From contig CP070705.1 of assembly GCA_020349965.1 (NCBI GenBank), forward strand, positions 545,934 through 609,933: a stretch of 64,000 nucleotides of DNA, in the 5' to 3' direction. The notes beneath the pieces are model-generated. The model was not told where the DNA came from. It saw only the letters and a program-made list of their open reading frames with translations, and did no database searches. Every line of letters begins with the position of its first letter. Positions within the stretch are counted from its first letter, which is position 1. Origin of the DNA: a candidate division WOR-3 bacterium. Its GTDB lineage: Bacteria > Hydrothermota > Tepidihabitantia > SM23-42. This document shows positions 3,372-56,682 of this stretch, piece by piece. The translations under genes were made by a program, and so were the position numbers.

Positions 3372-3546
3372 AGTAGGCGCGAGACACTGGTAAAGACATC
3401 TGACCAAGCCTCGGCGATGTTGTTTGGCAAACGTTCCTTCTCCGGCCTGTACCTTGACACCATAATCTTAGTTGCTATAATCAAGTGATGCACGAGTGAT
3501 ACAAGTCGTACGTATTGAATGATTCTGTAGAAGAAAGGAGATTGGT

Positions 3547-3927
3547 ATGGAAACCGCAAATCTATTCGCTGCGTGGGTCGGTATGCTCGTTGGTGCCGTA
3601 GTCGGCGCCTTCAGCGGGCTATTCTTTCATAGGCAAGAGTGGTTTGGTGGTTACGATTCATGGCAACGACGTATGCTGAGGCTTGGACATATTTCTTTCT
3701 TTGGTATCGCTTTCATAAACTTCGCTTTCGTTTTCACGATAATGTACCTCGGTATCAGTAAGCCTTTGTTTTTACCTTCGCTCTTGCTCATAGTCGGTGC
3801 CATCACCATGCCGCTCATTTGTTTTCTGTCTGCATACAAAATGTTCTTCCGTCATCTGTTTTTTATTCCGGTTGTGAGTATCATAATCGCGATGTTCCTC
3901 TTTCTTGTCGGAGGCGTGTTATCATGA
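3547..3927 (+). CDS. Small polytopic membrane protein, translationally coupled to the downstream radical SAM gene
   Basis: Four predicted TM helices. Its stop overlaps the downstream ATG (ATGA). Confidence 0.4.
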   Translation: METANLFAAWVGMLVGAVVGAFSGLFFHRQEWFGGYDSWQRRMLRLGHISFFGIAFINFAFVFTIMYLGISKPLFLPSLLLIVGAITMPLICFLSAYKMFFRHLFFIPVVSIIIAMFLFLVGGVLS

Positions 3928-5662: not shown

Positions 5663-5942
5663 ATATCCTCCTTATTACATGACTACGTGCCTGCTTGTTG
5701 TTTCTTATTATAATTGTGTTTCAATTCTTGTCAATGATCTGGAATGATCTTCAGCAAATTGGTGCAATGGCAGTGTGCTTCTTCCATCCTGCACAGCGAA
5801 TAAGGCGTATTGTGCTTGGAATCTTGTAACCGGTGTCGTTGACAAGTCATTATTCAGTGTATACAATTCGTAACGTTATTACGGCAGTTGCTTCAGTTTC
5901 TTTTGCTTGATTTTGTGGAAGCGCAAGAAATAAGGAGGTCCA

Positions 5943-8979: not shown

Positions 8980-9007
8980 TTGACATTGGGCATTTTCTAT
9001 ATATAAT
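8980..9007 (+). promoter_or_regulatory. Consensus sigma70 promoter (TTGACA-N16-TATAAT) for the first cold-shock gene
   Basis: Seen directly in the sequence; it lies ~95 nt upstream of the ATG. Confidence 0.55.
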
Positions 9008-9101: not shown

Positions 9102-9305
9102 ATGACTTACGGAAAAGTCAAATGGTTCGATGGCAGAAAAGGCTATGGTTTCATTGAGAAAGAAGACGGAACCGGTGATGTTTTTGTCCATTATGGCGAC
9201 ATAGCGGGCGGCGGTTATCGTTCACTTAATGAAGGCGATAGAGTTAAGTTTGAGCTTGGCCAGTCTACAAAAGGTCCAAAAGCTACACAAGTCGAACTTG
9301 CATAA
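9102..9305 (+). CDS. csp: Cold-shock protein, CspA family
   Basis: 'MTYGKVKWFDGRKGYGFIEKEDGTGDVFVHYGDI' contains the RNP1 and RNP2 motifs of the cold-shock domain. Confidence 0.9.
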   Translation: MTYGKVKWFDGRKGYGFIEKEDGTGDVFVHYGDIAGGGYRSLNEGDRVKFELGQSTKGPKATQVELA

Positions 9306-18210: not shown

Positions 18211-20358
18211 ATGAAATTGAAGCTATTGATGACCTTTATGATTTGCACGATAGGTTGGGCAAATGTGCTGAGAGTGAACGTGGCAGCACCAGCCTACACC
18301 TTTGAAGAAGATCGATTGGTCGTATGTGGCGCTGCGTACCGTAATCCGATCGGCGCGCCTGCACTTCCGTGTAGAGTGGTTACAATAGCCTTGCCGCCGG
18401 GCGCAATAGTAGAGGCGGCTGATTTCCACGGCGTATGGCGTGAAGTGGGTGAAGTGTTCGTGCCACCGTCTGAACCTTCCCTTCCTCTATCATACGGTAC
18501 TGCTGTGGAAGAACTGCTCGAGCAGTTCAGATGGGCAAACGAGCTGTATTACCATTCTAGTCAAATATATCCGGCTTCCTATGGTAGTATCATCTCGACC
18601 GGTGGATTACGCAAGTATACGTTGGTTACGGTGGCGTGTAATCATTTTGCATATAATACGATTGCCGGAATGTTGTATTGTTCAGAAAACATAACAGTTG
18701 ATATTTATTATACATTGCCGCCTCCGTCAAGTAATCGAACAATCTATTGGAACGGTTTGAACGATGATGTCACATTCGACGCGATCGCGAAAGATCTAAT
18801 CTATAATTGGAATGACGCGCAAGTCTGGTATCACACTGATGAACCTAATCGTGCGAACGGTTATTACATCATAGTACCAACGGCACTTCAAGGTGCGGTT
18901 GATGCACTCGTGCAACACCGACAGAACCAGGGATATGATGTTGAAATAGTGACGAAGGAATATATAGATGCTAATGTCTCTGGCATTGATATCCAGGCAC
19001 GATTGAGGAACTTTCTGAGGGCGAACGTGGCGGACATAGAATATGTGCTGCTCGTTGGTTTCTCGACCGATATGCCGTGGAGGAACTTGGTGCCTTTCAA
19101 TAACGACCCGAATAGCCCCTATAATCATCCTGATTACTCACCGATACCGAGCGATCTCTATTATGCCGAATTGACTGACCCGGACAGCGTGTCATGGAAC
19201 AGTGACGGTGATTCATATTACGGAGAAGTATATACAGAGAATTTTCAGCCGATGGGTGAGGATGATCCAGATTACCATGCGGATGTGCACCTTGGGCGCA
19301 TTCCGTTTAGTGACCAGAACACGATCGAAGACATTTGCGCAAAGACGATTGCTTTTGATACGGACAACGATGTCGGGTACAAAACGGCTTCTCTATTGAC
19401 CGGGGCCATTTACTATTACGCAAACGAAAACAGTACTGGCAATGCCCGCAGGGATGGCGCGGAATATTGCGAGCAATTGCTTATTGATTCGGTCCTTCCT
19501 CGTGCGAGCGCAGTGACTCTCTATGAAAAGGGAGGGCTTGATCCGTGCACGCTCTCCTGTACGGACTCGCTCACGAGGAGCAATCATGTAGTGTACTGGC
19601 AGAATAAGGGGATCATGTATGAAGCCCATCACGGCAATGTGCCGCTGTATGCGCGCAAATTGTGGGCATGGGATGACGGCGATCTTATTCCCGAAGACCC
19701 TGAGATCACCTGGCCGACATCATTCTATATCACGGATGTGTACCTCTTGGATAATGATCACCCTTCAACATGCTTTCTCCGTTCATGCCTTTGCGGAAAA
19801 CCCGAGGAGACTAGTCTGGGTGCTATGCTCTTGTATCGCGGCGGCTCCAGTGTAATCAGCAGTTCACGTATCTCATGGGGGAGCCTGGCCGACCCTGGCG
19901 GCATTCCGTACCACTTCTATAACAGGTTAATTCAGGATACAGTTGCGAGCGGTGGTATTATCGGGATTGCCTATGACGTTGCCCGAAATGATTTCATGGG
20001 CAATACCGGCTTTTGGCTGCCGGCTTACCATTACAATCTTTTCGGTGATCCAGCGCTGAGACAATTCGGGCAATTTGTCGGGATAGCGGAGAATGAAATC
20101 GAAGCCCCGCGTTTTGTTCTGAGTGTTTTCCCGAACCCATCGCGCGGTAAGATTAGGTGCAGCCTTCACTCAGACCAGGAACGGTCAATTGATTTCGACG
20201 TCTATGATGTATCAGGGCGTTTGGTAAGAAGTATTCGGTCTGACGCATCATATGGGCATAGTGTTTATGTGGACATAAGCCTTCCTTCCGGTGTATACTT
20301 TCTAATATGTAACAATGGCGCGAATGATTTTCAAGAGAAGATTGTTATTACGGAATAG
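18211..20358 (+). CDS. Secreted gingipain-like (peptidase C25 family) protein with T9SS C-terminal sorting domain
   Basis: Signal peptide, then 'YYIIVPTALQGAVDALVQHRQNQGYDVEIVTKEYI...YVLLVG' and 'YEAHHGN', which resemble the C25 catalytic-domain signatures. The C-terminal 'VYDVSGRLVRSI...GVYFLICNNG...EKIVITE' is a Por/T9SS CTD-like beta-sandwich. Confidence 0.5.
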   Translation: MKLKLLMTFMICTIGWANVLRVNVAAPAYTFEEDRLVVCGAAYRNPIGAPALPCRVVTIALPPGAIVEAADFHGVWREVGEVFVPPSEPSLPLSYGTAVEELLEQFRWANELYYHSSQIYPASYGSIISTGGLRKYTLVTVACNHFAYNTIAGMLYCSENITVDIYYTLPPPSSNRTIYWNGLNDDVTFDAIAKDLIYNWNDAQVWYHTDEPNRANGYYIIVPTALQGAVDALVQHRQNQGYDVEIVTKEYIDANVSGIDIQARLRNFLRANVADIEYVLLVGFSTDMPWRNLVPFNNDPNSPYNHPDYSPIPSDLYYAELTDPDSVSWNSDGDSYYGEVYTENFQPMGEDDPDYHADVHLGRIPFSDQNTIEDICAKTIAFDTDNDVGYKTASLLTGAIYYYANENSTGNARRDGAEYCEQLLIDSVLPRASAVTLYEKGGLDPCTLSCTDSLTRSNHVVYWQNKGIMYEAHHGNVPLYARKLWAWDDGDLIPEDPEITWPTSFYITDVYLLDNDHPSTCFLRSCLCGKPEETSLGAMLLYRGGSSVISSSRISWGSLADPGGIPYHFYNRLIQDTVASGGIIGIAYDVARNDFMGNTGFWLPAYHYNLFGDPALRQFGQFVGIAENEIEAPRFVLSVFPNPSRGKIRCSLHSDQERSIDFDVYDVSGRLVRSIRSDASYGHSVYVDISLPSGVYFLICNNGANDFQEKIVITE

Positions 20359-25164: not shown

Positions 25165-26778
25165 ATGAGAGTGAGTGTGATGGTTCTTAGCTTGCTGCTT
25201 CTGATCTCTGGTTACGTTCATGCCACACAATATCTTATCAGGATCGATGCCCGGGCAGGGCAGGATTTGCAGATCGTTGAGTTGATCGATGGATATGCAC
25301 TGCTCGTTGCAAATGACGAAATGTTGCAGGAATTCGGTGAAAAGAAAACTGATTACGTCATTCTTGACGAAAATCCCTCCGATAAGTTTTATCTCTTTGT
25401 TTTTCCTCTCGCTGAAGATGTAGAGAGTATTGCGCGGTTCGGTATGATCATTGATAACTATGAAGAGTGTGTTCTGATAGCGACGACACCGGATAACATA
25501 CGGCTATTGAATCGTTTACAGGTAGAGCTAGAGCAGCTGACACTCAAACCGATCGTGCGGCGGGATCTTGGGGATCTTGACTATTACGACTTCGATGATT
25601 TTCCAGTCACGAGAGATACTCTTATTGAGCAGATGCTTAATGAGGTCGATCCGGAGAATATTACGAACATAGTGTGGACCCTGCAGAATATGTACACGCG
25701 ATTCTCGATGAGCGACTCAAACAGGATAACCGCTGTGAACTATATCGACAGCATGCTCATTGCATACGGGTGCGATAGTGTTTACCGGCATAGTTTTTCA
25801 AGTTTGTACGGCGATAATGTCGTAGGTATTAGAATGGGGGAGTATTATCCGACGACACAATGCTACGTTTTGATCGGCGGGCACCTCGATGACGTCCCGG
25901 ATTACGGGTATGCACCTGGTGCCGATGATAATGCCTCGGGAGTGGCTGCAATGCTCGAGGCAGCCCGCGTAGTGAGTGACTATGATTTCGAGCGCACGAT
26001 AAGGTTTGCCGCCTTCAATGCTGAAGAACAAGGCCTGATAGGAAGCGACTACCTGGCTGCTGAGGCGAGCAGCGAGGGTGATACCATCATCGCTGCTCTT
26101 TGTTACGACATGATCGGGTATGTTACTGCTCCGCTGCTTGATACGATGCGGCTGAGGTACACGACTGCCGTACCCGGCTGTAGTCTGTTTACGTGCGATT
26201 TTTATCAGACGGTTGCAGATACTTACACTCAACTGAAAATACGTCCGGTACGCTACACGGGGACAAGCGGTTCCTCTGACCACGCGAGTTTCTGGCAGCA
26301 TGGTTATATATCAACCGGGGGCATCGAGCGCGTTCTGTGTCCAGGTTACCACACGGTCGGCGATTCCATCGGCCCGACCGGGTTCAACAATATTGAATTC
26401 GCAACTGAGGTCATTAGGACGGCAATAGCTGTGCTTGCTACAATTGCCGTTCCGATCGATTCAGGTACTGCCGTAAGTGAATTGTCGACATTTGAGAGTT
26501 CTCCCCTTTTTATTGTCAGGCCAAACCCCGGGGAAAGTTTCGATATTAGTTTTGCGATCGATAATGAATTTGAAAATGTCGATCTAGTAGTGTACGATTG
26601 CATGGGGCGTTTCGTTCAAAGGCTTGTGTCAGGGCGCTATTACCGGGGTGTTTACTCGTGCCGCTGGGATGGGAACACTACAGATGGCTCTGAAGTAACA
26701 CCCGGGGTCTATTTCTTGGCGCTAAGGTCTGAGGGCAGAACTGAAAGACGTAAGATCATATTACTCGATTGGCCATAG
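25165..26778 (+). CDS. Secreted M28-family peptidase with T9SS C-terminal sorting domain
   Basis: 'GGHLDDV...GADDNASGVAAMLEAAR' and 'FAAFNAEEQGLIGS' are the metal-binding signatures of M28. The C-terminal 'VYDCMGRFVQRLV...GVYFLALRS' is a T9SS CTD. Confidence 0.75.
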   Translation: MRVSVMVLSLLLLISGYVHATQYLIRIDARAGQDLQIVELIDGYALLVANDEMLQEFGEKKTDYVILDENPSDKFYLFVFPLAEDVESIARFGMIIDNYEECVLIATTPDNIRLLNRLQVELEQLTLKPIVRRDLGDLDYYDFDDFPVTRDTLIEQMLNEVDPENITNIVWTLQNMYTRFSMSDSNRITAVNYIDSMLIAYGCDSVYRHSFSSLYGDNVVGIRMGEYYPTTQCYVLIGGHLDDVPDYGYAPGADDNASGVAAMLEAARVVSDYDFERTIRFAAFNAEEQGLIGSDYLAAEASSEGDTIIAALCYDMIGYVTAPLLDTMRLRYTTAVPGCSLFTCDFYQTVADTYTQLKIRPVRYTGTSGSSDHASFWQHGYISTGGIERVLCPGYHTVGDSIGPTGFNNIEFATEVIRTAIAVLATIAVPIDSGTAVSELSTFESSPLFIVRPNPGESFDISFAIDNEFENVDLVVYDCMGRFVQRLVSGRYYRGVYSCRWDGNTTDGSEVTPGVYFLALRSEGRTERRKIILLDWP

Positions 26779-27568: not shown

Positions 27569-27855
27569 TGGCACGGTTTGGGTTTGAGCAGGAGCTCCCG
27601 ATATAGTCTAATCCAGATTGCGTAACTGAATCCTTAATTGATTGCTGGCAAAGAGATAATATACGAAATCATAGTACGTGGCAGAGCGACCCGGTCGTTA
27701 TAATGCGGGATCAAGAATGCACCTTTTAAAGACGACGCCTGATTCTCTTGCGCAGCAAATTGTGCGGCATCATGTGAAAAAAGTGAATTATCGCAATATT
27801 CCAACTGACGATGCTCGGGGAACCGCTGCGATAATCAATAGGTTTGTGGTCTGAA

Positions 27856-28002
27856 TTACTTTTCTGTCCTTCTCCGATCCTCTCCCGACCTTCGGTCTTT
27901 GCCGCTTCTACGTTCCGGTCCTTTGTAGTTAGGATCCTGAGACTTCCTGCGTTCTTTCCCGGACCTACGTTCTTCCCCAGACCTGCGGTTCTTCTTTTCC
28001 AT
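27856..28002 (-). CDS. 48-aa arginine-rich repeat microprotein (MEKKNRRSGEERRSGKERRKSQDPNYKGPERRSGKDRRSGEDRRRTEK)
   Basis: Not in the ORF track because it is under 60 aa. It has a textbook AAAGGAGGG RBS 8 nt before the ATG and a perfect TTGACA-N18-TATAAT promoter upstream. The product contains 4 imperfect ERRSG(K/E) repeats. Confidence 0.45.
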   Translation of the reverse strand: MEKKNRRSGEERRSGKERRKSQDPNYKGPERRSGKDRRSGEDRRRTEK

Positions 28003-28069
28003 AGATTACACCCTCCTTTCAATCAACAGATGTGGCATAGATCTGCTACATTGCTTCCGTTGCCGGGCC

Positions 28070-28099
28070 ATTATACAATAGAAATCAAAGGTCTGTCAA
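28070..28099 (-). promoter_or_regulatory. Consensus sigma70 promoter driving the microprotein ORF
   Basis: On the minus strand the sequence reads cTTGACAgacctttgatttctattgTATAATgg. Confidence 0.55.
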
Positions 28100-29499: not shown

Positions 29500-29907
29500 C
29501 TACTTGATTGTTTTTTCTACGATTCCGAGGATTCTGAGCACGATGAGCACCGAGACGCAGGCGATAATCGCGAGCAGATAATAGCCTGCGCCGATCGCCA
29601 GTCCGAGTCCGCTCGCGAGCCAGATCGTTGCCGCCGTGGTCAGCCCATAAACCTCGCCACGGGCACGGATGATCGCACCTGCACCCAGGAATCCAATTCC
29701 TGTTACGGCGCCAGCAACGATCCTGCCGAGTTCGGAACTGGCTAGGCCCAGTTCGAGGCCGATGAGCATGAAAATGCTTGAACCCAGGCATACAAGGATT
29801 ATCGTGCGCAGACCTGCGGGTTTGTGTTCGAGCTCACGTTCGAGGCCGACCAGGCCTCCTATCACTATGGACGTAGCAAGCCGTATGACAATTGTTGTCC
29901 ACTCCAC
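29500..29907 (-). CDS. mgtC: MgtC/SapB-family membrane protein
   Basis: 'IVIGGLVGLERELEHKPAGLRT' signature. GTG start. Confidence 0.8.
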   Translation of the reverse strand: MEWTTIVIRLATSIVIGGLVGLERELEHKPAGLRTIILVCLGSSIFMLIGLELGLASSELGRIVAGAVTGIGFLGAGAIIRARGEVYGLTTAATIWLASGLGLAIGAGYYLLAIIACVSVLIVLRILGIVEKTIK

Positions 29908-31146: not shown

Positions 31147-31746
31147 ATGGCCAAGACAAAGAACCTGAAGGAGATCCTGATTTTACTTCGTAAATACAGT
31201 CAGTTGATAGTTGACCTCGGTTATGCAGCAGTGCTGGAGGACAATCTTGAACTGGCGCAGGAGGCGTTCAGGATCAAGTCCGAGATCAAAGAACTAGATT
31301 ATCAGCTGAGAAAAGAAGCCTTGATGGTTGCGCGTCTTTCCAGGTCTGCCAAAGAAGGCATACCGCAAATCGCCAACATACTACAGATTGGTGTGGCGAT
31401 CAAGGAAATATCTGACGGTATCGATGACTTGATCGAAATAGCGCTCAGAAACGTCGGCGTCCATCCGATAATCAAGATAGCCTACTCGCGCAAGGATATT
31501 AGGATCACGAGACATGAAATCGGAGAAGGGTCGAAACTCGATGGCAAGAGAGTAGATGAAATAAAAATGGACCCGGAATCCATTTTCAGGATAATTGCAA
31601 TGAGGCGGGAAGACGAGTGGACACTCGACCCGCCAGGAGGCAAGAAATTACAGGGCGGTGATATCATAATCACCGAAGGAAGGGACGCGGCAGTACGAAA
31701 GATGCAGGAATATGCCAAAGGCAAGAAAGAAGAGACGGGTAAATAG
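31147..31746 (+). CDS. PhoU-like / TrkA-C (RCK_C) domain regulatory protein
   Basis: The C-terminal 'GKRVDEIKMDPESIFRIIAMRREDEWTLDPPGGKKLQGGDIIITEG' matches TrkA-C. The N-terminal half is helical and PhoU-like. Confidence 0.55.
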   Translation: MAKTKNLKEILILLRKYSQLIVDLGYAAVLEDNLELAQEAFRIKSEIKELDYQLRKEALMVARLSRSAKEGIPQIANILQIGVAIKEISDGIDDLIEIALRNVGVHPIIKIAYSRKDIRITRHEIGEGSKLDGKRVDEIKMDPESIFRIIAMRREDEWTLDPPGGKKLQGGDIIITEGRDAAVRKMQEYAKGKKEETGK

Positions 31747-32917
31747 AAGAATAGTTGCCGATATTCTCCTTCAGGCGACTCCCGTAGTCATTTTGACTTC
31801 AATCGGCGAGCTCTTTGCCGGGTCGATACTCGGTAAGATGCATGAACGGCTCGATCTGATCCCCGGTCTCATTATCCTGGTTCCAGCCGTCATGGGGCTG
31901 AGGGGGAACATCGGTACGGCGCTTGGCTCGAGGATGTCTGCATCACTACATCTTGGCCTTGTCAGTAGTAGATTCACGTTTAATAGATTCAACCTTGGTA
32001 ATATCGAGGCAGGTTTACTCTTATCTTTGATGGTTTCCGTGATCATAGGAATGTTCGCACGGCTGGCGTGTCAGATTTTTGGTCTTCCGAGTATACCGTT
32101 GGTCAACATGGTTCTGATCGCGATCATGGCATCGGCAATGGCGTCGCTGTTGCTCGTACCCTTTACCGTGACCCTAACCTTCTTTGCTTTTAATAAACGC
32201 CTGGACCCGGACAATATCGTAGCGCCGGTCATCGGGATGGTTGGTGATGTAATAACCGTTGCCGTTGTGTTCATTGCTGCCGACGTTGTGTCGCGATTGG
32301 AGATCGGCAATGCGTGGATCCTGTTATTGCTGCCGGTCATTGCTATGGCAGCCAGGCGTGTCCCTGTCCGGTACCGACTGCTGAGCATACTGAAGCAGAG
32401 CATTCCAATATTGATTATATGTACAATGCTCGGGGTTCTCGCCGGGATTTACCTGCACTGGCAATATGAGAAATTCTATCTTATTCCCGGGCTGCTCATT
32501 CTCGTGCCGCAGATCATAGCCAAGGCCGGAAGTATTGGTGGGATTTTCGGCGCGCGCTTTTCATCGGCACTCCACCTTGGGTATCTGAAGCCTTACCGTG
32601 TGAATGACTACGTCGTCAAGAATTTTCTAGGCGGAATTGCTTTGGCAATGGTGATAGCGCCGATCGTTGCGATGATCACAAAGTTCGGCGCAGATCTATT
32701 CGGGATCCCAATCGTTCCGTTTGTACCGCTTCTCTTGATGAATATTTTCGCCATTGTGGCAATAACGTTCATCATTTTCATTCTAGATTTCCTGACTGCA
32801 TCATTGTCATACAAGGTGCGAATCGACCCATCGAACGCGGTCATACCTCTCGTTACCAGTTTAGGCGACATCGTAGGAACTGTAATCCTTGTGCTGGCAA
32901 TTGGTATATTTTTGTAG
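31712..32917 (+). CDS. MgtE-like (SLC41-type) divalent-cation transporter with two tandem MgtE transmembrane domains
   Basis: The 'LIPGLIILVPAVMGLRGNIGTALGSRMSASLHLG' signature is repeated as 'LIPGLLILVPQIIAKAGSIGGIFGARFSSALHLG'. The gene lacks the cytosolic MgtE N- and CBS domains, and a PhoU/TrkA-C gene lies directly upstream. Confidence 0.65.
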   Translation: MPKARKKRRVNRRIVADILLQATPVVILTSIGELFAGSILGKMHERLDLIPGLIILVPAVMGLRGNIGTALGSRMSASLHLGLVSSRFTFNRFNLGNIEAGLLLSLMVSVIIGMFARLACQIFGLPSIPLVNMVLIAIMASAMASLLLVPFTVTLTFFAFNKRLDPDNIVAPVIGMVGDVITVAVVFIAADVVSRLEIGNAWILLLLPVIAMAARRVPVRYRLLSILKQSIPILIICTMLGVLAGIYLHWQYEKFYLIPGLLILVPQIIAKAGSIGGIFGARFSSALHLGYLKPYRVNDYVVKNFLGGIALAMVIAPIVAMITKFGADLFGIPIVPFVPLLLMNIFAIVAITFIIFILDFLTASLSYKVRIDPSNAVIPLVTSLGDIVGTVILVLAIGIFL

Positions 32918-33434: not shown

Positions 33435-33465
33435 GGTGTGTATTATAGTGATGGAACCGGGTGTG

Positions 33466-34212
33466 TCAATCCGCCTTGACTTGTCCGGTCCGGAGCCAAA
33501 ACGCCCAATCAGCGCGTCCGTTCTTACCGGCCAGAGAAGATGCTGCTTCCCAATCATATACGACCTCTTGATGTTCCGCATGCCACGTTCCATTGCCTTC
33601 GGTCAGAATGGTGTAACGCGCGTGAGGTGAATGGTTCTGCATTGCGTGACGGTGCGGTGTTTCATCCTGGAAAGCCTGCAGTCCCACGCTGCCGGGGTCG
33701 ACGACCAGTGTTCCGTTGTTCAGGAAGAGCGACCGTGGAACGTGGTCGTGTCCGCACAGCACGACACGACAAGAGATTTTCTTGACCATCTTCTCCATCT
33801 CGCATCCGTTACGCAGGACTTTCCCATCAGGGTTAATGTGCCAGAAAAAGTATTCGGTGTCTGAACGCGGTGATCCGTGGCAGGCGAACAATACATTGTC
33901 GATGGTCGCAGTACAGGGCAGGCATGAAAGCCATTCTACCTGTTCACGTTTGAGCCTGCTGCGTACATATTGCAGGGTGGGTGACAGTTCATTTTCCCGA
34001 GCCGAACATATCATACGGTCCTCATTGCCCCGCACCGATCTAATGTTCAGGTCCACGATCAGTTCGGCAGTGCCTGAAGGATCAAGAGGCCCGTATAATG
34101 CATCACCCAGGTTGATGATATCGCGGACGGCACGGGTCCGGATATCGGCGAGGACGGCCTCCAGTGCGCCGCAGTTTCCGTGGATGTCAGAAATTATTGC
34201 ATACTTCTTCAT
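33466..34212 (-). CDS. Metallophosphoesterase (calcineurin-like)
   Basis: 'ISDIHGN', 'GDALYGP', 'GNED' and 'GHDH' motifs. Confidence 0.75.
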   Translation of the reverse strand: MKKYAIISDIHGNCGALEAVLADIRTRAVRDIINLGDALYGPLDPSGTAELIVDLNIRSVRGNEDRMICSARENELSPTLQYVRSRLKREQVEWLSCLPCTATIDNVLFACHGSPRSDTEYFFWHINPDGKVLRNGCEMEKMVKKISCRVVLCGHDHVPRSLFLNNGTLVVDPGSVGLQAFQDETPHRHAMQNHSPHARYTILTEGNGTWHAEHQEVVYDWEAASSLAGKNGRADWAFWLRTGQVKAD

Positions 34213-35633: not shown

Positions 35634-35661
35634 TTGACAAGTTTGAGATAATTAATATAAT
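35634..35661 (+). promoter_or_regulatory. Consensus sigma70 promoter (TTGACA-N16-TATAAT) for the third cold-shock gene
   Basis: Seen directly in the sequence. A 5' UTR partly homologous to the other two csp leaders follows. Confidence 0.5.
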
Positions 35662-36007: not shown

Positions 36008-36748
36008 TCAATTCTTCTGCCACGACATGTTTTCAAGATACTGACGCAGATGTCCCGCCGTGCGAAACTTGCGTACGATCAGGGAACGTTTAAGTCCGCA
36101 GCAGATTTCCTTAACTTCGGTTGGTAATTTCTTGTATTGTTGGGCGCCGCCCAACACATCGTAGAAGATGCGGATGAGATCGCATACGTCATCCTTGATG
36201 TTGTCGGCGCCGGGTGCGCCCCAATTATACATGTCGACAAGTTTGACGACGAATGATAACCCCTGTCGCTTTATTATGATATTTTCATCGTGAAGATCAC
36301 CGTGATATTCGCGTGCCCGGTGTATTTGCTCAACTCCTGCGGCGAGAGAGTGGAGAAGGTGCAGGCCTTCGAATGGTGTGAGCCGTTTTCCGAGTTGGCG
36401 TCTGACAAAGTCAATTAGCAATTCGCCTTCTACATATTCCGATATCAAGACCGTTACTGGTTCCCTGTGAAAGACGATGCGCTCCTGTGTATGGTATTGT
36501 ATGAGAATGGAACAGTGTCTTAATCTGTGAAGTTTCCTTGCATAGAACTTCGTTGCACGGTCATACCGATTCCGCTGCGGAAAGAACACCTTTGCAGCCC
36601 TTTCCACTCCGGTATTTCTTTCCTTCACGCGGTAGACTTCGCCTTCCCATCCACTGCCCAGCAACGACAAAACCTCGTATTTACTTGCTAGAATCCGTCC
36701 GGGAAGGAGGTTGAAACTTATGACACGTTCGATCTTCTTACGTGACAT
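36008..36748 (-). CDS. Atypical small protein kinase (RIO/Bud32/Kdo-kinase-like)
   Basis: 'LLGSGWEGEVY' Gly-loop, an 'AAKVF' Lys, 'YHGDLHDENIII' catalytic loop and 'LVDMYNWG' in place of DFG. There is no APE motif, and the protein is ~246 aa. Confidence 0.55.
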   Translation of the reverse strand: MSRKKIERVISFNLLPGRILASKYEVLSLLGSGWEGEVYRVKERNTGVERAAKVFFPQRNRYDRATKFYARKLHRLRHCSILIQYHTQERIVFHREPVTVLISEYVEGELLIDFVRRQLGKRLTPFEGLHLLHSLAAGVEQIHRAREYHGDLHDENIIIKRQGLSFVVKLVDMYNWGAPGADNIKDDVCDLIRIFYDVLGGAQQYKKLPTEVKEICCGLKRSLIVRKFRTAGHLRQYLENMSWQKN

Positions 36749-43290: not shown

Positions 43291-44778
43291 ATGGCAAAAG
43301 ATAATGATTCGACCAACCCCAGACCAGTTGTAAGGTTCCTCACTGACAAGACGATCGAAAAGATTGTCTCTGAGGCTCGCGAAATACTCTGTAGACTCGG
43401 AGTGGAGATAAACAACGATGAGATCCTTTCGATGCTGCATGATCATGGCGCGACCGTGGATAGAAAGAAGAGCCTTGTTCTCTTTAAAGACGGTATCATC
43501 GATCGAGCCTTGAAGACGACGCCTCGTTCGTTTAAGCTATATGACGTCTTAGGCAACCAAACCCACGATTTTTCTGGTTATGGCGTGCATTTCACGCCGG
43601 GCTCGGCAGCGTTGAATATACTGGACGGAGTGACGCAGCAGATCAGGAAGCCTGTGACCGCTGATTATGTCAAATATGCGATGATCGTAAGTCAGCTCAG
43701 AAATATTGCATCGCAGTCGACCGCCTTCATTCCGGCTGACGTCCATGAAAGAATTTCTGACAGTTACCGTCTTTACTTGAGTCTGCTTTATTGCGAGAAA
43801 CCGGTGGTGACCGGTGCATTTACAATCGAGGCGGTCGGGGTGATGAAAGAGTTGCAGCTTGCGGTGCGCGGCAGTGAAGAAAAACTGGCTCAACAACCGC
43901 TCACAGTGTTCTCGTGTTGTCCGACATCGCCGCTTAAGTGGAGCGATGTAACATCACAGAATGTCGTTGACTGCGCCCGCGCATCGATACCAGTAGAATT
44001 CATTTCAATGCCGTTATCCGGTTTTATGGCACCGGTGACGCTTATAGGCACGCTCATACAGCATACAGCTGAGACACTGAGCGGTATAGTGATAAGTCAG
44101 CTTGTGAATCCGGGTGCGCCTATACTCTATGGTGGGTCGCCGGCGATATTCGATATCAGGTATGAGACGACACCGATGGGAGCCATTGGGACGCAGATGA
44201 TAGATTGTGCGTATAACGAAGTCGGCAAGTATCTGGGTATGCCCACGCAGGCATATATATCGCTGAGCGATGCCAAACAACTCGATGCCCAGGCTGGTCT
44301 CGAATCATCGATGGGTGCGACCCTTGCCGCACTGGCCGGGATCAACAACATATCTGGACCTGGAATGCTTGATTTTGAGAGCTGCCAGAGTCTCGAAAAA
44401 CTCGTACTCGACAACGAAATATGCGGAATGGTTTTGCGGTTGGTTGAGGGGATTCAGCCGAAAGAAGATTTTCCGTCGTTGCCGCGGTTTGAGGAATTGC
44501 TTGCTGAAAAGCATCTTCTTATTTCGGAACATACGCAGAAATATCTAAAGGAAGAACTCTGTTTGCCAGGACCGGTCATAGACAGGGCGAACCGGACGAG
44601 GTGGCAGGAAGAGGGTGGATTGACACTTCTTGAGCGAGCCAACCGTGAAATAGACAAATTGATGGGTAGTTACGTTCCCTCGCGGCTTTCCGGAAGCGTG
44701 CAGGCCGATCTAAGAAAGATCATGTTACGGGAAGCACATGCTTGTGGTATGACCAACCTACCGGATATTTCCATATGA
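43291..44778 (+). CDS. MttB-superfamily (trimethylamine-type, non-Pyl) substrate:corrinoid methyltransferase
   Basis: About 495 aa. The N-terminus 'LTDKTIEKIVSEAREILCRLGVEINNDEILSMLHDHGATVD...LKTTPRSFKLYD' matches the conserved MttB-family start. The ORF has no in-frame internal stop, so it is not a pyrrolysine-type gene. Confidence 0.7.
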   Translation: MAKDNDSTNPRPVVRFLTDKTIEKIVSEAREILCRLGVEINNDEILSMLHDHGATVDRKKSLVLFKDGIIDRALKTTPRSFKLYDVLGNQTHDFSGYGVHFTPGSAALNILDGVTQQIRKPVTADYVKYAMIVSQLRNIASQSTAFIPADVHERISDSYRLYLSLLYCEKPVVTGAFTIEAVGVMKELQLAVRGSEEKLAQQPLTVFSCCPTSPLKWSDVTSQNVVDCARASIPVEFISMPLSGFMAPVTLIGTLIQHTAETLSGIVISQLVNPGAPILYGGSPAIFDIRYETTPMGAIGTQMIDCAYNEVGKYLGMPTQAYISLSDAKQLDAQAGLESSMGATLAALAGINNISGPGMLDFESCQSLEKLVLDNEICGMVLRLVEGIQPKEDFPSLPRFEELLAEKHLLISEHTQKYLKEELCLPGPVIDRANRTRWQEEGGLTLLERANREIDKLMGSYVPSRLSGSVQADLRKIMLREAHACGMTNLPDISI

Positions 44779-45518
44779 GGAATGTGCTTAAGATCTCGGT
44801 AAAAGATGTCATTCCCGGGCAGAAGGAATCACTCGCCCTACAGGGAATTTCGTCTTTGAAAGAACCCTCTGATAGAATAGTGAAACTTTATCAAGGGGCC
44901 AGAGAATCATTCGAGGCAGTTTGTCACCCGGTCGGCGTGGTCGCCGATATCACGAAAGAGGATTTTGTACGCGTCTACAGAGGAGACGGGCGCAACGAAG
45001 CATCGACACCGGTTGGGGAGATATTCGAGAAGGCGGATCGCCTTGCTCTTTTCGCTGTGACCGTGGGTCATGATGTGCATGAGAGGATAAATGAACTTTT
45101 CGGGCAGAAGGATTTTGCGCTTGGCAGTATGTTGGATTCCGTTGCTTCTGCCGGAGTCGAAAAGGCGGCCGATGTCGTTGAAGCACGTTTCTCGAGATAT
45201 TCGAGGAAAAGAAGAAGTCGTAGTGAACCTATAGTGACAATGCGGTATAGCCCAGGTTACTGCGGGTGGCACGTAAGTGGACAGAAGAAACTGTTCGAGT
45301 TCCTAAAACCGGGGGATATCGGAATCACGCTGCGCGAGAGTTTTCTCATGGAACCATTGAAATCAGTGTCGGGAGTCTTGATACAAGGGCATGCTGAGAT
45401 ACACAAGGTTGAAGATAAGTATCCATTCTGTATTCAATGTGATACTCATTCGTGTCGGGAAAGGTCGTTGAGATTAGATCGCCATGTGACATCAAGAAGT
45501 GCTAATGAAGGGGAGTGA
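44775..45518 (+). CDS. Standalone MetH activation (AdoMet-binding, Met_synt_B12-like) domain protein
   Basis: 'MRYSPGYCGWHVSGQKKLFEFL...ITLRESFLMEPLKSVSGVLIQ' aligns with E. coli MetH '[22 protein letters not shown]...KLTESFAMWPGASVSGWYF'. ATGA overlap with the mttB-like stop. Confidence 0.65.
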   Translation: MRNVLKISVKDVIPGQKESLALQGISSLKEPSDRIVKLYQGARESFEAVCHPVGVVADITKEDFVRVYRGDGRNEASTPVGEIFEKADRLALFAVTVGHDVHERINELFGQKDFALGSMLDSVASAGVEKAADVVEARFSRYSRKRRSRSEPIVTMRYSPGYCGWHVSGQKKLFEFLKPGDIGITLRESFLMEPLKSVSGVLIQGHAEIHKVEDKYPFCIQCDTHSCRERSLRLDRHVTSRSANEGE

Positions 45519-45519
45519 T

Positions 45520-46158
45520 ATGGGCATTTTAGAGGACATCTCATCAGCGTTACAGCGCGGGAATGGAAAAGACGTAGGCAAACTGGTAGAAGAGGCTTTG
45601 GCAGGCCGCAGAGAACCTAAAGAAATACTCGATAATGGTTTGATCGCGGGTATGAATGTAATCGGGCAAAAATACAAAGATCATGAAATATTTCTACCTG
45701 AAGTGTTGCTTGCGGCCAAAGCGATGTATGCGGGCATGGACATATTGAAGCCGCTATTCCTGAGCGGTAAGATGCCGACTTTGGGGCGTGTAGTTATTGG
45801 TACTGTACAGGGAGATATCCACGATATCGGCAAGAACTTGGTTTGCATAATGCTGCGTGGAGCAGGCTTTGAGGTGATCGATCTGGGTAAGGACGTTGCA
45901 CCGAAGAAGTTCGTTGACACTGCAGTAAATGAAGGTGCGCGTGTCATCGGCATGTCGGCGCTGCTGACGACTACCATGCCGGTTATGAAGAACGTCGTTG
46001 AACTGCTTAAAAAAGATGGGCTTCAGTCGAAGATAAAGACGATCATCGGCGGCGCGCCTGTCTCGGATGAATTCGCCAGGCACATAGGCGCCGATGCGTA
46101 CGGCTACGACAGCATGCAGGCCGTTGAGCGGATAAAGAGATTCTTCTCTGAAGCGTAA
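45520..46158 (+). CDS. Corrinoid (cobalamin-binding) protein
   Basis: B12-binding cap helices followed by the 'GDIHDIGKN' DxHxxG motif, 'MSALLTTT' and 'IIGGA'. A GGGGAG RBS is present. Confidence 0.8.
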   Translation: MGILEDISSALQRGNGKDVGKLVEEALAGRREPKEILDNGLIAGMNVIGQKYKDHEIFLPEVLLAAKAMYAGMDILKPLFLSGKMPTLGRVVIGTVQGDIHDIGKNLVCIMLRGAGFEVIDLGKDVAPKKFVDTAVNEGARVIGMSALLTTTMPVMKNVVELLKKDGLQSKIKTIIGGAPVSDEFARHIGADAYGYDSMQAVERIKRFFSEA

Positions 46159-48539: not shown

Positions 48540-48673
48540 TTCGTGTCCTGACGCGTCCGTACACTCACACTTTCGTTCCCTTTAGTTGACATCAGATGGT
48601 TGTTGTTTATAATACCTTTGCAGAAGTTCCACTCGTTCATGGAATAGTGTCATAGCGGACCGAAGGAGGCAAA

Positions 48674-56144: not shown

Positions 56145-56516
56145 TCATCGGCGAAATCCACGGTAGCGTTTTCTGCCTCGTCGCTCGCTGCGCCCCATGG
56201 TATCTCTCGGTCGGCGGCAGGCTCCGATCATCTTGATGTTACCTCCTTCAATCTTGATGGCGCTTCCCGTAATCAGGGCATGAGCGATTTTGTTGTGCGC
56301 AGAATCGATTATGCGGCCGAATGTTTGACGGGATACGTTCATGATCTGTGCTGCCTCTTCTTGGTATCGGTCTTCATGGTCGGCCAATCTCACTGCTTCG
56401 AGTTCGTCCATTGTCAATGTGACTTCATCAAGTTGTGATAACGGTATTCCACGTGGCTTGAAGTAATATACCGAAGGTACAAATCTGACACTGCGGCAAC
56501 ATTGTGGGCGCGCCAT
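56145..56516 (-). CDS. DUF134 (UPF0251) predicted DNA-binding protein
   Basis: 'MARPQCCRSVRFVP...YFKPRG...MDELEAVRLADHEDRYQEEAAQIMNVSRQTFGRII' follows the DUF134 consensus. Confidence 0.6.
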   Translation of the reverse strand: MARPQCCRSVRFVPSVYYFKPRGIPLSQLDEVTLTMDELEAVRLADHEDRYQEEAAQIMNVSRQTFGRIIDSAHNKIAHALITGSAIKIEGGNIKMIGACRRPRDTMGRSERRGRKRYRGFRR

Positions 56517-56682
56517 ATAGTTGTCTCCTTAGGTTATCTATACTATTATAAGCATATGCCCATAATTGTCAAGGGCTGAAAATCCATGTTGTTTGAAGGA
56601 CACATATTGACAGCGGTTTATTATTGCCTAAAGTATGTAAAATGAGAGCGATTTCAGAACCTATAAATGGCGGAGGTCAACG

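Follow-up and report, generated by a model that had tools for sequence, protein, structure and literature searches.

A free-standing arginine-rich microprotein family with a CleD-like, putatively c-di-GMP-binding core, found in candidate division WOR-3 and spanning more than ten phyla

Introduction

Receptors for cyclic di-GMP (c-di-GMP) form a notoriously diverse group, and predicting them is difficult. The PilZ domain carries the motifs RxxxR and [D/N]xSxxG on a six-stranded β-barrel. To our knowledge, no linear, self-contained c-di-GMP binder is known other than the arginine-rich peptide of CleD, a CheY-like protein of Caulobacter in which it was first recognized as a C-terminal tail. Here we describe a microprotein gene on the minus strand of a 64,000-nucleotide stretch of a candidate division WOR-3 bacterium genome (contig CP070705.1). 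This 64-kb stretch is referred to below as the window. The 48-residue product is one member of a large family of small basic proteins, and its core resembles the CleD motif.

The CleD motif is DRR-x11-(R/K)RxxD. The apo peptide is unfolded, and each peptide takes up two c-di-GMP molecules (Hee 2020, PMC7382256). A 19-mer, CSP4, which lacks the first aromatic residue, has a dissociation constant (Kd) for c-di-GMP of 177 nM. The complex has been solved; the residues critical for binding are D154, R155, R156, Y163, G165, R168, and R169, and the R169...D172 turn is superimposable on the RxxD site of PleD (Hee 2020, PMC7382256). When expressed in P. aeruginosa, the peptide sequesters c-di-GMP and inhibits biofilm formation, and other small, specific c-di-GMP binders were stated not to exist (Hee 2020, PMC7382256). 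The natural consensus unit of these arginine-rich (ARR) sequences is [Y/F]xGP[D/E][R/K]R, which occurs in tandem. ARR sequences were reported in 302 proteins, of which 294 were alphaproteobacterial and 91% had a CheY-ARR architecture, and the CleD ARR grafted onto CheY or SUMO still binds c-di-GMP (Nesper 2017, PMC5677366).

A conserved protein-coding gene with strong expression signals

The promoter of the microprotein gene was read from the sequence as a −35 hexamer, TTGACA (28094 to 28099), and a −10 hexamer, TATAAT (28070 to 28075), separated by an 18-nucleotide (nt) spacer, and it scores 12 out of 12. It is followed by a 5′ leader (28003 to 28063), within which lies a Shine-Dalgarno sequence, AAAGGAGGG (28011 to 28019). 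After an 8-nt spacer (tgtaatct) comes the ATG (28002 to 28000) of a 48-codon open reading frame (ORF) that occupies positions 27856 to 28002, stop codon included. An initial annotation of this DNA had listed the same promoter, Shine-Dalgarno sequence, spacer, and ORF, and all of these were confirmed. It had given the leader about 70 nt; the leader is present, and its length, counted from an inferred transcription start, is about 60 to 68 nt. The product is MEKKNRRSGEERRSGKERRKSQDPNYKGPERRSGKDRRSGEDRRRTEK. It has a net charge of +10 (13 R, 7 K, 7 E, and 3 D), and 30 of its 48 residues are charged.

Perfect TTGACA-N16-18-TATAAT promoters occur eight times in the window, against 0.04 expected. 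The promoter signal of the microprotein gene is far beyond chance, as the initial annotation had held, yet it reflects a genome-wide habit and does not set this gene apart. Very probably, this is a real promoter and the mark of a small gene that is well expressed. Because it combines a consensus sigma-70 promoter with a strong Shine-Dalgarno sequence, the peptide is probably abundant in the cell.

To collect homologous loci, we searched species-representative genomes with a degenerate DNA pattern that encodes YKGPERRSGx[DE]RR, which gave 66 loci. The closest of these belong to candidate division WOR-3 (L005, L008, L011, L033, L018, and L051). Complete WOR-3 chromosomes with the gene include CP070686.1, CP070802.1, and CP070664.1. 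The WOR-3 loci keep the promoter, the leader length, the Shine-Dalgarno sequence, and the ORF, and flanking genes are shared with L033 and L008. The −35 hexamer is retained as cTTGACA in five orthologues (L033, L008, L011, L018, and L051), and the −10 region and the Shine-Dalgarno region are retained as TGTATAAT and GAAAGGGAGGAG. Leader length and parts of the leader sequence (tGTAGCA and TGTTGATTGAAAGG) are likewise kept in five WOR-3 loci. In pairwise comparisons with the six WOR-3 orthologues, the ratio of nonsynonymous to synonymous substitution (dN/dS) was 0.02 to 0.15. Synonymous divergence (pS) was 0.47 to 0.82, so that synonymous sites are near saturation. All length differences among these orthologues are whole codons and lie at the C terminus. 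The checks on related genomes, synteny, and frame conservation that the initial annotation had proposed thus came out in favor of its central claim, a genuine and strongly expressed microprotein gene. We conclude that this is a genuine, conserved protein-coding gene.

The leader has no thermodynamic structure signal and folds no better than shuffled sequence (z = −0.02). Rfam searches of the microprotein locus at a permissive threshold gave no match, c-di-GMP riboswitch families included, and a search of the whole window at the gathering threshold gave nothing relevant and no riboswitch in the leader. No intrinsic terminator was found 3′ of the gene.

The microprotein core matches the CleD motif

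A search of the whole Protein Data Bank (PDB) with a profile of the microprotein family (hmmsearch) gave a sole significant match, 6sft_A (E value, 0.002). Entry 6SFT is a peptide of 36 residues from the "two-component receiver protein CleD," and the alignment sets GPDRRRFNSADYKGPRKRK against geDRRkfnDpnYkGpERRs. When the family was aligned with the CleD peptide by hhalign, the probability was 92% (E value, 6e-7) over 20 columns, and BLASTP of the window protein against the same peptide gave an E value of 4e-4. The initial annotation could not place the product in a known family. Judged by sequence similarity, its core motif is homologous to the arginine-rich c-di-GMP-binding motif of CleD.

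The aligned core comprises codons 17 to 36, E-R-R-K-S-Q-D-P-N-Y-K-G-P-E-R-R-S-G-K-D (27895 to 27954, minus strand), which align with DRR-x11-(R/K)RxxD. The core of the family as a whole is [D/E]RR-x6-YKGPERR. In the window protein, E17-R18-R19 is followed after 11 residues by R31-R32, in agreement with the DRR-x11-(R/K)R definition; of 256 small members, 65% carry [DE]RR-x11-[RK]R. In 118 of 121 close cases, the [DE]RR-x6-Y spacing does not vary. This fixed gap of six residues from the first Arg pair to the Tyr makes the x11 spacing the same as in CleD.

Residue by residue, CleD D154-R155-R156 corresponds to E17-R18-R19, Y163 to Y26, G165 (which has a positive phi angle) to G28, P166 to P29, and K/R168-R169 to R31-R32. 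Position 17 is Asp in 65 to 85% of relatives. The positions critical for binding in CleD are conserved in the family, namely, [DE]17, R18 (90%), R19 (99%), Y26 (93%), G28 (91%), R31 (89%), and R32 (98%). E30 differs from CleD R167 but fits the [D/E] of the natural ARR consensus. In fact, YKGPERR fits the [Y/F]xGP[D/E][R/K]R unit exactly, and 62% of small members carry it.

We then compared conservation with the published alanine scan. For this, 165 single-unit members were aligned to the family hidden Markov model (HMM), and per-position information content was set against the Kd values of the Ala mutants. Conservation correlated with affinity loss (Spearman rho, 0.59; P = 0.008), and the correlation rose to 0.70 (P = 0.0009) when CleD D172 was matched to family D36. 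When the Kd vector was slid through 28 registers, the true register was the best; the next gave 0.44, and the others gave at most 0.2 (permutation P = 0.004).

AlphaFold2, run with 56 sequences, returned no secondary structure for the 48-residue product (pTM, 0.20; mean pLDDT, 67). The model therefore predicts a peptide that is disordered on its own, which is consistent with folding only upon ligand binding.

The family is large, and most members stand alone

A search with the single sequence found 105 relatives. A profile search gave 1,053 clusters at an E value of ≤1e-3 in a 90%-identity collection and 719 representatives in a 50%-identity collection, 72 of them at an E value of ≤1e-10. The best 120 matches of a search of 5.8 billion proteins were all small proteins. 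Most members are 40 to 80 amino acids (aa) long, stand alone, and are annotated as hypothetical or not annotated at all. Pfam and NCBIfam searches with the peptide and six relatives gave no match, and for the peptide Pfam had none even at an E value of ≤1.

The family spans more than 10 phyla, and Nitrospirota are the most frequent hosts. Other hosts are WOR-3, Desulfobacterota, Gemmatimonadota, Planctomycetota, Atribacterota, Aminicenantes, Ignavibacteria, Treponema, and Anaerolineae, and cultured hosts include Sphingopyxis and Novilysobacter. A scan of viral contigs found no family copies. The motif also occurs in two metagenome-assembled genomes labeled "archaeon" (L016 and L059). In L016, the peptide hardly differs from Desulfobacterota-type members, and the archaeal occurrence is probably a binning artifact.

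The family consensus is ...RSGx[DE]RRK[F][ND]DPNYKGPERRSGx[DE]RRSGxDRRK. Three positions, R13, R19, and R38, do not vary, and conservation reaches 90% or more at R18, Y26, G28, E30, R31, R32, R37, R43, and R44. Two full units are present in some members, which are about 80 aa long.

Two further observations concern the family at the DNA level. The ERRSG core (R31-R32-S33-G34; 27904 to 27915 in the window) shows a position-specific codon preference across phyla (loci L004 to L069). In 65 cases, the first Arg codon was CGN in 57, the second was AGR in 39 (AGA in 36), the Ser codon was AGY in 51, and the Gly codon was GGC in 36. The adjacent codons (Y, K, G, P, and E) vary freely, and the preference is lost above about 64% GC. 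An RNA-level or translation-level constraint and shared descent are possible causes. In addition, two contigs from different samples (L128, 9908 to 10090; L130, 2650 to 2832) carry a microprotein ORF with an in-frame stop (..GKDRR*SIEPNYKGPERRS..) upstream of a DUF4118-GGDEF gene, which may reflect decay of the copy or recoding of the stop.

Two other assignments were considered for the microprotein and rejected. It is not a precursor of a ribosomally synthesized and posttranslationally modified peptide, since a radical SAM gene is adjacent in one locus only (L001) and there is neither Cys nor a leader/core organization. Nor is its arginine-rich sequence a twin-arginine translocation signal, as there is no hydrophobic region.

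Neighboring genes and fusion partners point to signaling

We surveyed the neighbors of the microprotein at 146 loci, made up of the genome loci and a second, independent set of 80 metagenome loci. The control consisted of 141 genes more than 2.5 kb from the microprotein in the same loci. No neighbor family is conserved across phyla; neighbors vary by lineage. PilZ was the commonest family among adjacent genes in the genome loci (7 of 86), and the metagenome set held three GGDEF and three PilZ genes among 112 adjacent ORFs. The 141 distal genes contained none by HMM or phmmer and one HD-GYP candidate found by regular expression only. Pooled counts for PilZ, GGDEF, and HD-GYP were 16 of 198 adjacent genes versus at most 1 of 141 distal genes (Fisher P = 0.001). 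The microprotein is genomically associated with c-di-GMP genes, and this association was found before the PDB match.

Several arrangements were seen. In six Nitrospirota, the microprotein gene is followed, after 46 to 71 nt (with one overlap), by a tandem-PilZ gene with canonical RxxxR and DxSxxG motifs, an operon-like layout. One Desulfobacter has the order PilZ, small membrane ORF, microprotein. In one locus (L017), a GAF-GGDEF gene, two more genes, an HD-GYP gene, and the microprotein follow one another on one strand. The microprotein precedes a DUF4118-GGDEF gene in four loci (L034, L106, L128, and L130), and in three others (L081, L087, and L132) the order is GGDEF, oxidoreductase, microprotein.

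The microprotein sequence also occurs as a module within larger proteins. It is fused to PilZ domains, either at the N terminus (P0217 and P0228) or at the C terminus (L121). In L114, L115, and L117, an N-terminal module is joined to two CheY-like receiver domains, and a PilZ gene lies upstream. Other partners are HisKA (L144), sCache/HAMP with a class III cyclase (L107 and L135), a ParA/MinD-type ATPase (P0120), a YbjQ domain, an ABM domain, membrane proteins, and a zinc-ribbon protein. A family of about 385 aa, coiled-coil-like and lacking a Pfam match, also ends in the module (P0139, P0146, P0170, P0209, and L037). A further family of about 470 to 540 aa (L013, L074, L075, L105, and P0152) carries a complete module at its C-terminal end. 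Its N terminus, judged by eye, is HNH-like (CxxC...DHxxP...N...CxxC), and it has no Pfam match. In four Treponema loci (L020, L029, L052, and L064), the module DRRKATPEEQAEYKGPERRSGxDRR is inserted into a protein of about 540 aa, of the RNA-metabolizing nuclease type, with metallo-β-lactamase, β-CASP, and RMMBL regions. The insertion falls at about residues 228 to 250 of the metallo-β-lactamase domain and might place the nuclease under nucleotide control or form an RNA-binding loop. Signaling partners predominate among the fusions, as expected of a portable ligand-sensing module, and this predominance matches the graftability of the CleD ARR.

Other features of the window

The other seven perfect promoters lie at 3454 to 3481, 5707 to 5734, 8980 to 9007, 33442 to 33469, 35634 to 35661, 48586 to 48613, and 56545 to 56572. 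Two of the genes they serve are CspA-type cold-shock genes, which start at 9102 and 35748 and have leaders of 86 to 94 nt. They also serve small membrane-protein genes, starting at 3547, 5662, and 48674, and a gene for 123 aa that starts at 56516. Downstream of the promoter at 33442 to 33469 (minus strand), no ORF with a Shine-Dalgarno sequence was found within 700 nt, and this promoter may drive a noncoding RNA.

The initial annotation had seen only low-complexity frames between the acyltransferase and S41 peptidase genes. Those between the microprotein gene and the acyltransferase gene include the remnant of a truncated convergent gene on the plus strand (27675 to 27854), whose stop is 1 nt away from the microprotein stop codon. 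The remnant corresponds to the last 60 codons of a glycosyltransferase-like gene of about 400 aa (58% identity; E value, 2e-16), which is intact in the WOR-3 relatives L033 (3245 to 4483) and L008 (281 to 1471). Its first 340 or so codons are missing, and the acyltransferase gene occupies their place.

Upstream of the microprotein, on the same strand, is an MgtC-family gene (29500 to 29907), and a gene for an MgtE Mg2+ transporter is nearby on the plus strand (31712 to 32914). MgtC is a conserved WOR-3 neighbor. It directly adjoins the microprotein in L011, L018, L051, and L070, and an S41 peptidase gene sits between the two in the window and in L033. The MgtC neighborhood may be a lineage-specific gene order.

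The sole Rfam match in the window at the gathering threshold is PYLIS_3, the pyrrolysine insertion sequence of mttB (44263 to 44362, plus strand; 44.3 bits against a cutoff of 38). It falls within an uninterrupted ORF for an MTTB-family methyltransferase (43291 to 44775), which is followed by a gene for a B12-binding corrinoid protein (45499 to 46155). The methyltransferase is probably a non-pyrrolysine MttB homologue whose sequence still fits PYLIS_3. An ORF with the string HDIGK was considered as an HD-GYP enzyme and rejected; it encodes a B12-binding protein. Finally, C25-family and M28-family peptidases (18211 to 20355 and 25165 to 26778, plus strand) have type IX secretion C-terminal sorting domains (Por_Secre_tail and CHU_C), which indicates a type IX-type secretion system in the host.

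Discussion

We think it reasonably likely that the microprotein gene encodes a free-standing arginine-rich c-di-GMP-binding peptide (ARR/CSP) of the CleD type. We infer both the binding and the role of the peptide, the latter being that of a buffer or an adaptor. In this scenario, the disordered peptide would capture a c-di-GMP dimer through E17-R18-R19, Y26, G28, R31-R32, and probably D36, and would fold on binding it. By analogy with CleD, the Arg side chains would form lateral pairs with the Hoogsteen edges of the guanines and would stack on the bases, Tyr26 would cap a guanine, and Gly28 would make a backbone turn. The peptide might then serve as a buffer of high affinity, titrating free c-di-GMP and setting the signaling threshold. 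Alternatively, it might be a small adaptor that depends on c-di-GMP and cooperates with PilZ-type effectors.

More tentatively, we suggest that the family could be a widespread natural "c-di-GMP sponge." An abundant free-standing microprotein, encoded in many phyla that are for the most part uncultured, would sequester c-di-GMP dimers and, by titration, set the threshold for PilZ and other effectors, with more than one dimer per peptide perhaps held through the extra RRSGxD repeats. The CleD-type motif would then be an ancient mobile sensor module and not a specialty of alphaproteobacterial CheY proteins.

A number of observations weigh against c-di-GMP binding by the microprotein. The CleD match is short, at about 20 columns, and arginine-rich. 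The first tandem unit is degenerate (R13-S-G15-K-E-R-R), having kept the Gly with neither the aromatic residue nor the Pro. The terminal (R/K)RxxD placement is not kept by the family, in which the Asp lies one residue further along than in CleD: the acidic residue stands three residues after the second Arg pair (RRSGxD) in 121 of 165 members and two residues after it (RxxD) in 15. In CleD, D172A and deletion of A171-D172 each cost about 10-fold in affinity and do not abolish binding, and single-residue loop changes also weaken it (Hee 2020, PMC7382256). Five Arg residues outside the minimal motif (R13, R37, R38, R43, and R44; 27871 to 27966, minus strand) exceed 4 bits and are conserved like the core Arg residues. 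The c-di-GMP model does not explain them; what they bind could be a polyanion, a partner protein, or a second c-di-GMP dimer. On the genomic side, the neighbor enrichment is not phylogenetically independent and comes down to about seven arrangement types. Neither the 64-kb window nor some 59 kb of WOR-3-like loci yielded a GGDEF, EAL, HD-GYP, or PilZ gene, and we found nothing in the literature on c-di-GMP in WOR-3. Some fusions are nucleic acid enzymes (the Treponema β-CASP RNase-type protein and the HNH-like family), and the gene for ribosomal protein S1 (rpsA) is the downstream neighbor in five related loci of one clade.

Part of this evidence would suit a generic polycationic, disordered binder of RNA, DNA, or ribosomes, such as a nucleoid- or ribosome-associated peptide or an RNA chaperone, whose likeness to CleD is coincidental or only ancestral. 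The high charge of the peptide fits such a role, as do expression signals of the same class as those of the two CspA genes in the window. So do the rpsA neighbors, the unexplained Arg pairs, and the presence of the module in the Treponema nuclease, the HNH-like family, the zinc-ribbon protein, and the ParA-type ATPase. However, a simple polyanion binder has no need of conserved acidic residues (E30 at 93 to 99%, [DE]17, and D36), of a fixed Tyr-x-Gly-Pro turn, or of fixed x6 and x11 spacings. Conservation also follows the c-di-GMP alanine scan in one register only, and the enriched neighbors and most fusion partners are c-di-GMP or signaling proteins and not RNA proteins. The ribosome-binding peptide proposed by the initial annotation finds no support in similarity to THX or any RNA-binding family or in a Pfam or NCBIfam match. 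We consider a generic polycation unlikely.

Less probable still is a short linear motif or adaptor that engages a conserved protein partner, e.g., a PilZ protein, and does not itself bind c-di-GMP. The operon-like pairing with PilZ genes and the promiscuous joining of the module to many domain types speak for it, as does the predicted disorder, which would be expected of a linear motif. Against it, no single partner family is conserved across phyla, and conservation falls on the residues that in the CleD complex make contact with the nucleotide.

The initial annotation had also proposed a multisite Ser phosphorylation substrate, citing RRxS repeats and an "atypical kinase" 8 kb away. That kinase is a short (245-aa) protein with a Hanks-type Pkinase domain (36008 to 36745, minus strand), and nothing ties its gene to the microprotein. 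The peptide does have four RRSG sites and one RRKS site. However, the repeats are RRSG, and RRxS occurs once (RRKS, Ser21), at a position that is not conserved and is usually Phe, or else Tyr, in relatives. Ser39 is Ala in L051 and L018, and relatives swap Ser for Ala, Thr, Asn, or Cys. Ser positions are about 56 to 65% conserved (Ser33, about 61 to 65%), versus more than 93% for the flanking Arg residues. The kinase is unlinked in every relative, and no kinase recurs beside the gene in the 146 loci, so that phosphorylation by the nearby kinase is very improbable. Fainter yet is the chance that there is no protein gene, the promoter driving a noncoding RNA or the ORF being an arginine-sensing leader peptide: the short ORF is rich in Arg codons, including rare ones, its leader is of considerable length, and a gene follows closely in Nitrospirota, but the low dN/dS at high pS, the whole-codon indels, the conservation across phyla of residues other than Arg (D, P, N, Y, K, G, P, and E), and the negative Rfam and leader fold results speak against it, and in WOR-3 there is nothing to attenuate because the downstream gene is convergent.

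The motif itself is known, from work of 2017 and 2020, as an alphaproteobacterial CheY-like tail. In the literature we found no description of free-standing versions, of a spread across phyla, or of PilZ, HisKA, cyclase, or ParA fusions, and no prior natural c-di-GMP sponge or microprotein or PilZ-linked arginine-rich small protein. Searches with the strings ERRSG and DRRSG returned only noise. If the family binds c-di-GMP, more than 1,000 small receptor or buffer proteins would be added across at least ten phyla, together with new sensor architectures (ARR-PilZ, ARR-Rec, ARR-HisKA, ARR-HAMP-cyclase, and ParA-ARR). It would also supply natural variants for c-di-GMP biosensors and anti-biofilm sequestering peptides, and buffering by a microprotein would be an added layer of second-messenger control. 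If the tentative sponge proposal is right, the "sequestering peptide" strategy engineered in 2020 is already in use in nature.

Comparison with known systems

The small basic ribosomal or nucleoid peptides, such as bTHX, are like the microprotein in being small and very basic and in having GDRR-like strings. The family differs from THX in its conserved acidic residues and YKGP turn, and the family profile scored 0.3 bits, no detectable similarity, against a THX sequence.

The RxxD inhibitory site of GGDEF proteins (I-site) and the RxD-x8-RxxD motif of BldD use Arg/Asp pairs to hold intercalated c-di-GMP oligomers, as is predicted for the microprotein. Their motifs, in contrast, are discontinuous and lie in folded domains, and the family has xxxD in place of xxD.

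The RxxxR switch loop of PilZ is an arginine-rich, flexible segment that wraps c-di-GMP, a behavior predicted for the microprotein as well. There is also a genomic link, since the module stands directly N-terminal to PilZ domains and adjoins PilZ genes. However, the microprotein has no RxxxR (its Arg spacing is 5 to 7, never 4), no D/NxSxxG, no β-barrel, and no Pfam PilZ match. In the fusions, the PilZ domain retains its own RRxxxR after the module.

The closest counterpart is the CleD ARR. Both are linear arginine-rich motifs that are disordered alone, the microprotein by prediction. Both have a [D/E]RR-x6-Y-x-G-P-[D/E]-[R/K]-R core with x11 between the Arg pairs, the binding-relevant Tyr, Gly, and Arg residues are conserved, and the sequence similarity is statistically significant. 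Each also behaves as a portable module on signaling proteins. The differences lie in context and in the flanks of the core. The CleD motif is the C-terminal tail of a receiver domain, whereas the microproteins are free-standing, 40 to 80 aa long, and have their own promoter. The CheY-like receiver that docks on FliM is absent, and the window protein has no other domain in its 48 aa. The hosts belong to many phyla, in contrast to the 294 alphaproteobacterial proteins among the 302 reported with an ARR. In the family, R-S-G-x stands in place of the first [Y/F]xGP unit, and the final Asp is shifted by one residue (RRxxxD). Extra conserved RRSGxD repeats stand on both sides of the core, and the module is found fused to PilZ, HisKA, HAMP-cyclase, and ParA/MinD proteins.

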